A stretch of DNA of 35,709 nt from Rickettsiales bacterium (GTDB lineage Bacteria; Pseudomonadota; Alphaproteobacteria; Rickettsiales; UBA8987), in the NCBI GenBank assembly GCA_028282625.1, contig JANQHP010000171.1, positions 1-35,709 on the forward strand. The letters run 5' to 3'. Both the position numbers and the translations under genes were made by a program. Position 1 is the first letter of the stretch; the number at the start of each line of letters is the position of its first letter. Of this stretch, positions 24,693-29,503 are shown one piece after another. A model generated the notes under the pieces. The model ran no database searches. It was not told where the DNA came from and was given only the letters and a program-made list of their open reading frames with translations.

Positions 24693-25817
24693 CTACACCC
24701 TCTCCAACACGGTTGCAATACCTTGCCCGCCGCCGATGCACATGGTGGCCAGCGCATAGGTGCCGCCTTCGCGCTTCAGTAAACTAGCCGCCTTGCCTAA
24801 AATCCGTGCACCGCTGGCACCCAGTGGATGGCCAAGCGCAATCGCACCGCCATCCAGGTTCAGTTTTGCTTCTGGAATTTGCAAATCCTGGATTACCGCC
24901 AATGCCTGCGCGGCAAAGGCCTCGTTCAGCTCCATCACATCCATATCGTTGATGGTAAGGCCCGCGCGTTTAAGCGCCTTTTTTGAAGCACCCACCGGGC
25001 CAATACCCATAATTTCGGGCGCACAGCCAGAAACGGCGATGCTCTTAACCCGCGCCAGTTTGGGCAAGCCCTGCACATCGGCATAGTCTTCCGAGGCAAT
25101 CAACAGGGCCGAAGCACCATCGGTCAGCGGGCTGGAGGTGCCCGCCGTCACGCTGCCCTTAACGTCAAAGGCGGGCTTGAGTTCCGCCAAGCCTTTGGCC
25201 GTGGTTTCTGCGCGGATGCAGCCATCCTGCGTCACACCAGCCACTTCCGCCACTTCATCGTTGAATTTACCGGCCTGCTGCGCCGCCGCGGCTTTTTCAT
25301 GGCTCTTCGCGGCAAAAATCTCCTGGTCTTTACGCTTAATCTTATATTTCTCCGCCAGATTCTCCGCCGTAATCCCCATCGCCTCATAGGCCGCGGGATA
25401 GCGTTCATAAAGTTCCGGATTCGGCGCCGGGTTAAAGCCTGTCATCGGAATGCGGCTCATGCTTTCCACGCCGGCAGCAATAAATACATCCCCCGCATTG
25501 GCGGCAATCATCCCCACCGCATCGTGTGCGGTTTGCATGGAAGAGCCGCAGAATCGGTTGACCGTATCGCCGGCCACGCTTATCGGCAAATCCACCAGGA
25601 ACGTCGCCAGCCGGCCCAGATTCAGGCCCTGCTCGCCCTCAGGAAACGCACAGCCCAGCTTGATATCTTCAATATGCTCAGGATTCACGCCCGTGCGTGC
25701 CACCAATGCTTTGACCACCTCACCAATCAGATCATCGGGCCGCACACGCGCCAACGCGCCCTTTCTGGCCGGGGTGAAGGGGCTACGCACATACCCCGCA
25801 ATAACCGCAGATTTCAT
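24693..25817 (-). CDS. Acetyl-CoA C-acyltransferase (3-ketoacyl-CoA thiolase)
   Basis: Thiolase motifs: NRFCGSS (active-site Cys), NEAFAAQ, GAIALGHPLGASGARI, CIGGGQGIA. 374 aa. AAGGAAAGG Shine-Dalgarno. Confidence 0.95.
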   Translation of the reverse strand: MKSAVIAGYVRSPFTPARKGALARVRPDDLIGEVVKALVARTGVNPEHIEDIKLGCAFPEGEQGLNLGRLATFLVDLPISVAGDTVNRFCGSSMQTAHDAVGMIAANAGDVFIAAGVESMSRIPMTGFNPAPNPELYERYPAAYEAMGITAENLAEKYKIKRKDQEIFAAKSHEKAAAAQQAGKFNDEVAEVAGVTQDGCIRAETTAKGLAELKPAFDVKGSVTAGTSSPLTDGASALLIASEDYADVQGLPKLARVKSIAVSGCAPEIMGIGPVGASKKALKRAGLTINDMDVMELNEAFAAQALAVIQDLQIPEAKLNLDGGAIALGHPLGASGARILGKAASLLKREGGTYALATMCIGGGQGIATVLERV

Positions 25818-25920
25818 AAGAAGCCTTTCCTTTGGTTATGCATACAGCACAACGTTCAACATAACAGAACTATTAAAATGATGCAATGAAAGGCCATCTT
25901 CCAGCAAAAGAAGCGTCGAT

Positions 25921-25951
25921 CTGTTTCATTTAGAAACATGCTGTTTCATTT
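25921..25951. promoter_or_regulatory. Palindrome plus direct repeat; candidate enhancer (UAS) or operator
   Basis: TGTTTC-ATTTA-GAAACA perfect inverted repeat at 25922-25938. CTGTTTCATTT occurs twice (25921-25931 and 25941-25951). The element is centred about 100-120 nt upstream of the predicted sigma-54 start site and about 35-65 nt upstream of a candidate -35 for the divergent thiolase operon. Confidence 0.4.
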
Positions 25952-25990
25952 TGAGAAATATAGCACAACAGGTCTCAAGAAAAATTTATT

Positions 25991-26003
25991 TAAAATATTG
26001 ATT
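25991..26003 (-). promoter_or_regulatory. IHF-like site within an A/T tract
   Basis: The minus strand reads AATCAATATTTTA, matching WATCAANNNNTTR. It lies between the repeat element and the -24/-12 promoter. Confidence 0.3.
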
Positions 26004-26021
26004 TTTATAGAAAAACAAAAT

Positions 26022-26037
26022 TGGCACGGCAATTGCA
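26022..26037 (+). promoter_or_regulatory. Sigma-54 (RpoN) -24/-12 promoter
   Basis: TGGCACG-GCAA-TTGCA matches the consensus TGGCACG-N4-TTGCW exactly. It is about 40 nt upstream of the response-regulator ATG, in an intergenic AT-rich region. Confidence 0.7.
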
Positions 26038-26076
26038 ACAATAGGGAGCGATCGTAACCTAAAATAGAAAAGAACC

Positions 26077-26979
26077 ATGCGTATTATCGAACAGAACACA
26101 GAAGCACGCTTACTTGAAACCGCGTATAAAATTCGGACCGAATCCAGCAGCTGGCGGTGCATCTATGCACAATTTTCTGCCCTTAAACGCGGAGCGCACG
26201 ATGACATCCGCAGCAAGGTTGCACTCAATGATGCCAAGGCGCTTCTTAAAGAGACACAAAACACAGCCTTTGTGTGCAGCGATTACGACATGTTCATCCT
26301 GACCCAAGGCGTGGGAAGCGATGTGCTTAAACAAGTCCAAAAAAGCTTTCAAACCCTCGTCGAAGCCGAAGGGGGAAACCCAGACTGCATCGCCTGCTAT
26401 GATCTAGGCCCGCACTGGAAAACATTCTTTAAAGTCGTGTGCGATAAAAACCAAACACCTCAAGCCAGGGAAGAAGATACAGCGCCTAAAAAAGCCGCAC
26501 CCGCGCAAACCACCGTAAAGGCGCCTTCAAACACCAGCCCCCTCACCCTTCCCCCTACCGGGGAAAACCTGGCGCTCGCTAAAGAAGCGCTAACACAGCG
26601 TACCCAGCGTGAAGGGCTGCAAATACTCGTGGTAGAAGACGATGCCTTTTCCAGGCGTATCGTGCGCAACGCGCTACGCAATGTCGGTGAAATATTGGAA
26701 GCAGCCGACCTGCAGCAAGCCACAGAACATTACCTGCTTCGTGCACCGGATATCGTTTTCCTAGATATCAACCTGCCCGATGGAGATGGCATTGCCTTTT
26801 TAGAACAAATCGTTGGCTGGGACTCCGAAGCATTCGTGGTCATGCTAAGCGGCAACAGCTTTAAAGAGCACATCATGCAATCGATGCAAAAAGGTGCCAA
26901 AGGATTCGTTGCCAAGCCCTTTTCTAAAGAAAAGCTGCTAGATTATATCCATATGCACAAGGAGAACGGCCGTGGATAA
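26077..26979 (+). CDS. Response regulator with unknown N-terminal domain and C-terminal receiver (REC) domain
   Basis: REC domain at residues ~183-300: [12 protein letters not shown], phospho-acceptor context [13 protein letters not shown], and VVMLSG...GFVAKPF. N-terminal ~130 aa are unrecognised, followed by a Pro/Ala/Thr-rich linker. No DNA-binding, AAA+ or GGDEF-type output domain. Confidence 0.85.
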
Positions 26980-29503
26980 ACCCTATACCCAAAATATAGC
27001 CATAGAATACAGCGCTTCACAGCTTTCTGCGGTTCTCAATAATATCATCGATGGCATTTTGACCATTGATGCCAACAGCATCGTGCGAAGCTTCAGTCCT
27101 GCGGCAGAAAGGATCTTCGGCTATGCCTCACACGATATGGTAGGCAAAGACGTGATGCAACTGGTCGCAGAAAAAGAGCAAGTGTTTCTCAGGCAATATC
27201 TGGACATTTATTTGCAAAGCGGCGAAGCGGGTGAAGAAGGCGATATCGGCTTGGTACACACCATGGATGCGTTGCATCAAGATGGCCGCACTTTCCCCGC
27301 AGAAATAGGGATGACAAAAGTCGCACTGGAAAACGGTGAAACCGTACTCACAATTATCGTAAGGGATATCACAGAACGTGTGGATGCGCGCGAAGCGCTC
27401 AAACAAAAAACCCGCACGGTCAAGCTGATGCAGGATATCGCTACATCCGCCAATGCAGCTACTTCCCTTGAGGAGGCCATTAGCCAGGGTTTAAAGCTGG
27501 TATGTGATTATACCGGATGGCAAGTGGGACATTGCTACATCATGGAAGAGGATGGCATGGCCCTTTCCAGCAGCGGCATCTTACACCGCGCAACCACGGA
27601 AGCAAACATGGAAAGCTTTATCCAGCATTCCCTCAAGATGCAGTTCCATGTCGGAGAAGGCATCATTGGTAGTGTGGCTAAAACCGGCAAACCTTTTTGG
27701 GTCCAAGACCTTACCCAAGAAAAAAACTTTTTACGCCATAAAGAAGCCAAGCAATGTGATTTACACGCGGCCTTCTTCTTTCCCATTGTGTTTAATGAAG
27801 ATGTCGTAGGCGTCATGGAATTCTTCTGCAACACTCAGCAGGAGGAAGATACGCAAATTTTGCAAGTGATGGAAAATGCCGGCACCCAGTTTGGGCGTGT
27901 GATTGACCGTATTCAGTCAGAAGAAGCGCTTCGAAAAGCCAAAGAACTGGCCGAAGAGGCCAATATCGCCAAAAGCGACTTTCTGGCCAATATGAGCCAT
28001 GAACTGCGCACACCCATGAATGGTGTGATTGGGCTTTCCAACCTGCTTTTGGATTCCACCTTGGATGATGAGCAGGAGAAATTCATTACCGCCATTCGTT
28101 CCTCCGGCGAACAGCTCCTCTCCATTTTAAACGATATCTTGGACCTTTCTAAGATCGAGGCTGGCATGGTGGAGGTAGAAAATGAGCCCTTTAGTATCCG
28201 CGCTGCGATCGATGAATTGGCAGACCTCTATTTGCCCATTGCCAAAGAAAAGAATGTGATGCTACACGCCGATTATTGTACCGATATTCCGCCTGTTTTG
28301 ATAGGAGATGTGCACAAGATCCAGCAGTTGCTCCGCAATTTAGTTAGTAACGCCCTTAAATTTACCAAAACAGGCAGTGTGACCATCAACACCTCCTACC
28401 ACATGCAAGCCAACCAGTTTACCTGTGAAGTACGCGACACCGGCATCGGCATCCCCGCAGACCGTCTGGAACAGATTTTTGATAAATTCACCCAGGCCGA
28501 TGAGTCCACCACACGCAATTATGGTGGCACAGGTCTTGGCCTGGCCATTTGCAGGGAGCTATCCCTGCTCATGGGAGGTGAAATTGAAGTGGAAAGCACC
28601 GAGGGCAAAGGCTCCACCTTCCGCTTTATCTTGCCGCTTGCCGTGGCCAAAGAAGGGGAAAAGCCTGTCAATGCCATCCACACAGAGGAGGATGAAGAAA
28701 AGGTAGAAATCAACACGCAAAGCCGTTTGCTTATTGTCGATGACCATCCCGTCAACCAGATGTTTGCACAAAAGCTGCTCCACAAGATGGGCTTTTCCAA
28801 TGTTTCCTTGGCAGAAAATGGAGAAGAGGCACTCCAGCAAGTAGCAGAAGAGACCTTCGACCTTATCTTTATGGACTGCCAGATGCCTTGCATGGATGGC
28901 TATGAAACCACCGGCTGGATCCGCGATCAGGAGCTGGAAACAGGCAAGCATGTCCCCATCATTGCCATGACGGCCAATGCCATGGTCGGTGATAGGGATA
29001 AATGCCTCAAAGCAGGCATGGATGACTATATCAGCAAGCCGATCAACATCAACAAGCTGCGCGCTAGCATGCACCGCTGGCTTGGCAACCAAACCAGCCT
29101 GGCAACGGCCGATACGGTGACAAACGCCAAAGAACAAGAAGCAAACCATGCTGATATGCCGGTAGATTTAGACCATCTGCACATGTTTAGCGATGGCGAT
29201 GCGGAGGAAGAATATGCCTTGCTTGAAATCTTTTTCTCCCAAGCCAAGCAAAATATCGAGCAACTGCACAGCTGCATTGAAGCAAGCGGTGAGAACTGGG
29301 AAAGCTTGGCGCATGCCCTAAAAGGCTCGGCTGCCAATCTGGGAGCCACCACCCTTTCTGACTATTGCTTAAAAGCCGAGCAATCCCCTGAGGCAAGTAA
29401 GAGCGAACAAGAGGAAATGCTCAAGCATATCACCGAAGAAATTGAGCGCGTGCATCTTTTCCTCAACGAAAAACTTGCCAAAGTGCCCGCTTATTCAAGC
29501 TAG
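26972..29503 (+). CDS. Soluble hybrid sensor histidine kinase (PAS-GAF-HisKA-HATPase-REC-HPt)
   Basis: GTG start with AAGGAGA 8 nt upstream; overlaps the regulator gene by 8 nt. H-box [12 protein letters not shown]-box [10 protein letters not shown]-boxes DTGIGI and [12 protein letters not shown]: [11 protein letters not shown]...[15 protein letters not shown]...DDYISKPI. HPt: [12 protein letters not shown]. No hydrophobic TM segment at the N-terminus. Confidence 0.93.

Follow-up and report, generated by a model that had tools for sequence, protein, structure and literature searches.

A probable enhancer-dependent sigma-54 promoter ahead of a phosphorelay operon in an uncultured Rickettsiales bacterium

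Which promoter transcribes the signalling operon at 26077-29503 of this Rickettsiales genome, and which activator would serve it? The DNA analysed is a single stretch of 35,709 nucleotides (the window), which is the whole of contig C97 in an assembly of 203 contigs that is 93% complete. The first gene of the operon (26077..26979, + strand) encodes a 300-aa protein with a Pfam Response_reg domain at residues 183-291 and an uncharacterised N-terminal region of ~130-150 aa, for which no Pfam family was matched. Its ATG at 26077 fits the N-termini of the orthologues, which start with MxI(I/V)xEN, and the Shine-Dalgarno sequence before this ATG is weak. The second gene (26972..29503, + strand) overlaps the first by 8 nt and encodes an 843-aa cytoplasmic hybrid histidine kinase with the Pfam domain order PAS-GAF-HisKA-HATPase-REC-Hpt. 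An earlier note on this DNA had placed a two-component operon, led by a regulator gene, behind a sigma-54 promoter. The two-component operon stands, whereas the term regulator does not: the 300-aa protein has no recognisable DNA-binding output, and we therefore call it the receiver protein. A locus search with this protein recovered no orthologues, only proteins from Rhizobium and Clostridia that resemble it in the receiver domain, and a homologue search with residues 1-170 recovered the query alone. The divergent neighbour is a thiolase gene with its ATG at 25817, the first gene of a beta-oxidation-type operon. The intergenic region between the two operons, 25818-26076, contains 34% G+C, compared with 51% in the window.

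Within this region, the sequence TGGCACGGCAATTGCA (26022..26037, + strand) contains a -24 element, TGGCACG, and a -12 element, TTGCA, with a gap of exactly 10 nt between the GG and the GC. Written as TGGCACG-GCAA-TTGCA, it agrees with the consensus TGGCACG-N4-TTGCW at 16/16 positions, and it lies 40 nt 5' of the ATG. An exact RpoN -24/-12 match at this place, ~40 nt before the ATG, had been described in the earlier note, and both the coordinates and the consensus agree. The whole-genome weight-matrix scan that the note had proposed was run, and the window site obtained the top sigma-54 score of the 1.51-Mb genome (19.4), in an intergenic position and aimed at a gene; the matrix is approximate, with frequencies based on published compilations, so that these scores are relative only. 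Taking the C of the GC (26036) as -12 and the usual distance from the -12 GC to +1, transcription is predicted to start at G26048 (26047..26049, + strand), which would give a 29-nt leader. No sigma-70-like promoter was found in 25700-26200 by a simple E. coli-type sigma-70 scan. The earlier reading had been made to depend on the presence of rpoN, and the genome indeed carries an intact rpoN gene on contig C63; its 507-aa product matches Sigma54_AID, CBD and DBD, all above cut-off.

Counts of the motifs are less informative. The strict sigma-54 16-mer occurs twice in the genome versus 1.2 times in first-order Markov resamples, which is not above chance, and the consensus for integration host factor (IHF) occurs twice in the window versus 1.7 expected. 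Since motif counts alone are close to chance, the case rests on position and conservation. It may be argued that the -24/-12 match arose by chance in A/T-rich DNA and that an unrecognised promoter of the sigma-70 type drives the operon, as about 1.2 exact matches are expected per genome and a scan of the E. coli type can miss sigma-70 promoters of alphaproteobacteria. This explanation can be weighed against the related loci. The pair of receiver-protein and kinase genes is conserved in six other genomes (G007, G013, G016, G033, G004, and G115), and tblastn identified five full-length orthologues of the first gene (G033, G016, G007, G013, and G004) with 31-38% protein identity. In all five, the sequence TGGCAY-N6-xGCW precedes the start codon by 27-56 nt, and the DNA around it is unalignable.

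The N-terminal domain alone was also searched in 300 genomes of the order, and it is found in three architectures: as a stand-alone protein (~155 aa), joined to a receiver domain (~295 aa), or joined to an EAL-like region (~410-450 aa), which matches Pfam EAL below cut-off only. Seven new stand-alone or receiver-fused genes came from other families, and in 7/7 a strong -24/-12 element is located at -39 to -56. Altogether, the element is present in 13/13 short or REC-fused members (our own and 12 others) from several families of the order, versus 0/16 scorable genes with the weak EAL-like fusion. This distribution argues against a chance match. With the element at the same place at 12 other loci whose flanks cannot be aligned, and absent before the EAL-like fusions, a chance origin is almost certainly not the explanation. 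A separate observation concerns the domain itself: a stretch of the form 'C-x-D-x-D-I/M-F-I-L' is conserved in the N-terminal domain (window 26077-26520, loci L136-L163) and looks faintly GGDEF-like, with no Pfam match.

Upstream of the promoter core lies an A/T-rich spacer (25960..26021) with 19% G+C. It contains the IHF-type site AATCAATATTTTA (25991..26003, - strand), an exact match to WATCAANNNNTTR that is centred at ~-51 and ends 18 nt before the TGG. This is the minus-strand IHF match that the earlier note had located near -50. The 60 nt 5' of the -24 element were compared in 13 related promoters with composition-matched shuffles. Allowing one mismatch at most, WATCAANNNNTTR was matched in 12/13 promoters versus 2.3 in the shuffles, and 0/2000 shuffles reached 12. 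In six of these genomes (our own, G016, G007, G013, G115, and G068), the IHF-like site shares its strand with the others, with 15-18 nt between its end and the TGG. Because its position is kept across promoters, the assignment to IHF is supported by both position and sequence, and we regard 25991-26003 as a predicted IHF site between the enhancer and the -24 element. The genome has three genes of the HU/IHF family, whose products match IHF-alpha (C180), IHF-beta (C58), and HU (C187) best among the NCBIfam models. The IHF-alpha-like and IHF-beta-like matches, scored on trimmed pieces, are slightly below the NCBIfam cut-offs.

Further upstream are two candidate upstream activating sequences (UAS). 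Site 1 (25922..25938, + strand) is the dyad TGTTTCA-TTT-AGAAACA, which contains the palindrome TGTTTC-ATTTA-GAAACA and is centred at ~-118. Site 2 (25942..25958, + strand), TGTTTCA-TTT-TGAGAAA, is centred at ~-98, which is 20 bp or about two helical turns from site 1, and a second copy of the shared word, CTGTTTCATTT, is located at 25941-25951. A repeat search extended the two copies to direct repeats of 19 nt with 84% identity and a spacing of 20 bp. The earlier note had reported the palindrome TGTTTC-N5-GAAACA and a second copy near -100 to -120, and the two centres fall within this range. It had also suggested searching the genome for the palindrome; this search returned one occurrence, that in the window, against 0.1 expected.

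Sites of the same form as the window copies are found 60-130 nt 5' of the -24 element in four relatives of the same family. The operon promoter of G016 has TGTTTCAAATTGGGATT plus TGTATCATTTTGAATCC on the opposite strand, that of G007 has the perfect dyad TGCATCAAAATGATGCA, that of G013 has TGTATCAAAATGGCTCA, and that of G004 has AGTTTCATAATGAGAAA, which is near-identical to window site 2 and occurs twice, and AGTATCATAATGAGAAA. The TGTTTCA-type motif is absent from the operon promoters of G033 and G115. Our own genome contains another such promoter, TGGCACGGCAACTGCA (C80:3737-3910), whose -24/-12 element is 15/16 identical to the window site and which has TGTTTCATTCTGAGACT, near-identical to window site 2, 158 nt upstream. 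It precedes a gene for a 121-aa XRE-family regulator (C80:3961-4323). Many relatives have -24/-12 elements before their orthologues of this XRE gene, and some (G004 and G006) have the same upstream motif. The presence of the same enhancer type before the XRE gene and the operon suggests a small regulon.

We note that our broad UAS pattern was defined after the sequences had been viewed. A cleaner test was therefore made with a pattern taken from the two window copies only, TGTTTCANNNWGA, allowing at most one mismatch. The test zones were the upstream regions of four same-family operon orthologues and 13 sigma-54-headed XRE-gene orthologues. The pattern was found in 8/17 of these independent zones versus 0.59 in shuffles, and the TGTTTCA-N3-WGA family is thus kept upstream of both operon orthologues and sigma-54-driven XRE genes. 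When a degenerate UAS pattern was searched genome-wide in G000, G004, G007, G013, and G016, matches exceeded the control, and no sigma-54-linked sites were added beyond the operon in these five genomes. When k-mers shared among the upstream regions were enumerated, A/T-rich words dominated the result. A UAS look-alike at C165:3270 has no promoter near it and was taken as a chance match. Overall, the layout of enhancer, DNA bend and closed complex put forward in the earlier note is supported by the comparison with related loci (13/13, 12/13, and 8/17 for the three elements, respectively). Position and conservation lift the promoter, IHF, and enhancer elements above chance.

The palindrome and repeat at 25921-25959 could also be read as an operator through which a conventional repressor would control the divergent thiolase/beta-oxidation operon, or both operons. 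The thiolase ATG at 25817 is preceded by this element at a distance of 105-140 nt, and between the two there is a minus-strand sequence TTGCAT-N17-TATGTT (25858-25886), which matches only 7/12 consensus positions of a sigma-70-type promoter; the sigma-70 scan reported nothing in the region, this sequence included. In G033, G004, G016, and G007, the thiolase orthologues are located away from the operon, and no TGTTTCA-type site is found within 300 nt of them. The neighbours of the operon vary among genomes, and the motif stays with the receiver/kinase operon despite these differences. The absence of the motif at thiolase orthologues, together with the differing neighbours, argues against a thiolase operator, as does its occurrence before sigma-54-driven XRE genes. 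We consider a repressor operator quite improbable, and in what follows the repeats are treated as candidate enhancer sites of the sigma-54 promoter. Another direct repeat, ATACAGCACAAC / ATATAGCACAAC, is present in the window at 25842-25853 and 25958-25969, with its copies 116 nt apart. One copy lies near the thiolase start and the other just past enhancer site 2, and this repeat might be part of the thiolase promoter region.

A sigma-54 promoter of this kind would depend on an AAA+ activator. The earlier note had held that this activator is not encoded in the window, and no Sigma54_activat match is present in contig C97; the activator genes are elsewhere. Only one Sigma54_activat protein of the assembly is intact; it is NtrX-like (C65:21766-23202, + strand) and has NDDIHAKGR at the position of the GAFTGA loop. 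NtrX proteins are known to lack this loop (bioRxiv 10.1101/2023.06.06.543975). Lacking GAFTGA, the NtrX-like protein was rejected as the activator. In addition to NtrX, five relatives each encode an FlbD-like protein (group A) and a receiver-AAA+-HTH protein of the NtrC family (group B). Proteins of both groups contain GAFTGA or GSFTGA, and there are 2-3 such activators per relative. In our assembly these groups are represented by fragments at contig ends: an FlbD-like C-terminus (C66:5159-5680, - strand), a group B receiver domain (C148:2914-3147, + strand), and a group B C-terminus with its HTH (C30:3-449, + strand). No GAFTGA peptide occurs in our assembly, and the AAA+ cores of both candidates fall in assembly gaps. 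Because these cores are unassembled, simply counting the activators would give the false impression that sigma-54 lacks a partner.

The top sigma-54 sites of our genome fall into two exclusive enhancer classes, and no promoter has both types of site. Besides the TGTTTCA class, promoters of a GGCA-N5-TGCC class precede flgI (C163:3932-3947, - strand), an flgF/G-type rod gene (C16:678-693, + strand), and a gene for a 238-aa protein (C181:7501-7516, + strand), each with one or two GGCA-N5-TGCC sites 90-210 nt upstream. A -24/-12 element is also present at a fliK-like gene (C49:3414-3429). A further sigma-54 match, on C104 upstream of dnaN, was judged to be due to chance. The GGCA-N5-TGCC class is presumably FlbD-dependent. 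Judging by these motifs, the TGTTTCA regulon appears to be distinct from the flagellar, FlbD-type sigma-54 regulon.

The flagellar promoters nevertheless bear on a rival assignment, in which the sigma-54 promoter is real, the activator is the FlbD-like protein, and the operon belongs to a late flagellar or motility set. Apart from group B, close relatives have the FlbD-like protein as their only GAFTGA-type activator, and the stand-alone homologues of the N-terminal domain in G045 and G068 have GGCA-N5-TGCC sites like those of our own flgI and flgF/G promoters. Class III/IV flagellar promoters of Caulobacter combine an ftr enhancer, an IHF site between enhancer and promoter, sigma-54, and FlbD, so that sigma-54 together with IHF is a late-flagellar layout there (PMC3096577). 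The window promoter shares this three-part layout with the late-flagellar promoters, and our own flgI and flgF/G genes have such promoters as well. Unlike in Caulobacter, the enhancer here is TGTTTCA-N3-WGA, and the genes encode signalling proteins rather than flagellar parts. The ftr consensus, as we take it to be, resembles GGCA-N5-TGCC. This sequence is absent from the operon-type and XRE promoters of the relatives, and the flagellar promoters have no TGTTTCA site.

Linkage in two other genomes also speaks against the FlbD-like protein. In G004, an extra activator gene (L169, C107 3648-5072, + strand) is divergent from the operon and shares its motif-bearing intergenic region, and in G115 a similar activator gene (L167, C7 14763-15998, - strand) lies just downstream of the operon. 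In a tree, group B and these operon-linked activators make up one clade (support 97/96) that is separate from the FlbD-like and NtrX proteins, and the recognition helix of their HTH resembles the STLYRK-like helix of group B. The surroundings of the operon in G004 and G115 also contain extra genes for single-domain receivers and Hpt proteins, and the G115 cluster is partly duplicated. We consider control by the FlbD-like protein unlikely. With two GAFTGA-type activators and two enhancer classes, and with the G/C-rich class on flagellar genes (FlbD), the TGTTTCA class is left for group B. By this exclusion, and by linkage in other genomes, the group B protein encoded by the C148 and C30 fragments is the best candidate for the activator of the window promoter.

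Taken together, these results suggest the following mechanism. RpoN-RNA polymerase would form a closed complex on TGGCACG-N4-TTGCA, and IHF would bend the 19% G+C spacer at ~-51. A receiver-bearing activator of the NtrC family would bind the tandem TGTTTCA-N3-WGA dyads at ~-118 and ~-98 and open the promoter using ATP, and transcription would begin near G26048. This activator would be the group B protein, whose gene is apparently split over the ends of C148 and C30 and which is sister to the operon-adjacent activators in two lineages. The receiver fragment of our own group B protein shows an acidic pocket of the usual kind (VVDND ... LMVLDLSMP), and it should therefore need a kinase. Because the operon kinase ends in an Hpt domain, its relay may phosphorylate the group B activator, and the kinase-Hpt relay would then feed back on its own promoter. 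Such positive feedback is plausible. The genome contains at least 19 HisKA and at least 7 Hpt domains, so that the pairing of the operon kinase with this activator is not unique. The motifs and their conservation are seen at these loci, and the genome has both rpoN and genes of the IHF type. We think it probable that 25922-26048 is a genuine enhancer-dependent sigma-54 promoter of the bicistronic operon 26077-29503.

The arrangement may be compared with known systems. At the enterobacterial glnAp2 promoter, two adjacent NtrC dyads of 7-3-7 layout lie ~100-120 nt upstream and are bound by a phosphorylated receiver-AAA+-HTH activator. Similarly, the window has two tandem 17-bp dyads of 7-3-7 layout ~100-120 nt upstream, and the G007 dyad, TGCATCA-AAA-TGATGCA, differs from the NtrC consensus TGCACCA-N3-TGGTGCA by one position per half-site. 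Unlike glnAp2, which works without IHF in nitrogen assimilation, the locus involves neither an ntrBC pair nor nitrogen genes, and the NtrX-like protein without GAFTGA is the one ntr-type protein that was found.

The nearest functional analogue may be the ShkA-ShpA-TacA system of Caulobacter, in which a hybrid kinase and an Hpt step feed the activator (PMC7010744). Caulobacter has four activators, with GAFTGA only in FlbD and TacA (bioRxiv 10.1101/2023.06.06.543975). TacA drives the transcription-factor gene staR, and its sigma-54-dependent targets are staR and spmX. We take StaR to be an XRE-type protein. The parallels, which are suggestive, are that both organisms are alphaproteobacteria with FlbD or an FlbD-like protein, one receiver-bearing non-flagellar activator of the NtrC family (both of GAFTGA type in Caulobacter and in the relatives of our genome), and an NtrX without GAFTGA, and that both have a hybrid kinase with an Hpt step and a regulator gene as a target (staR there, by prediction the XRE-type gene on C80 here). 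By analogy, the locus may work like this system. The two differ in that Hpt is here fused to the kinase, whose sensors are PAS and GAF and which contains a single REC, and in that the relay operon here itself carries a sigma-54 promoter. Among the Pfam domains of the operon kinase we saw no c-di-GMP-binding pseudo-receiver; a pseudo-receiver of this type with a DDR linker is, next to a TacA orthologue as the activator, the feature by which a TacA relay would be recognised. Because the kinase architecture differs, we do not file the locus as a member of ShkA-ShpA-TacA. A search of the literature for a binding motif of TacA found none.

The promoter is an ordinary and well-known type of control element, and since this type is textbook knowledge, the finding is mainly a sound annotation. 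The added interest, which is modest, lies in a conserved small regulon and its enhancer motif. In this genome, sigma-54 promoters appear to be split into flagellar and non-flagellar ones, each with an enhancer motif of its own, and the number of classes equals that of the two GAFTGA-type activators. The non-flagellar class would link the phosphorelay operon with an XRE regulator, which recalls the TacA circuit of Caulobacter and provides a testable motif for the activator family. A wider reading, which we put forward tentatively as possible rather than probable, is that the promoter is a node of an undescribed sigma-54 regulon that is conserved across an order of uncultured alphaproteobacteria with small genomes. 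This regulon would comprise a TacA-like activator, a new TGTTTCA-N3-TGA enhancer, an XRE regulator, and a self-amplifying phosphorelay with the uncharacterised N-terminal domain at its core, as a counterpart of the developmental TacA switch of Caulobacter. If this reading is true, it would mean a TacA-like developmental switch in a lineage where none is known. Proteins with the uncharacterised N-terminal domain, in their stand-alone and receiver-fused forms, are consistently under predicted sigma-54 control in several families. For this uncultured alphaproteobacterium, the promoter offers a way into the regulation of a signalling operon that otherwise lacks annotation.
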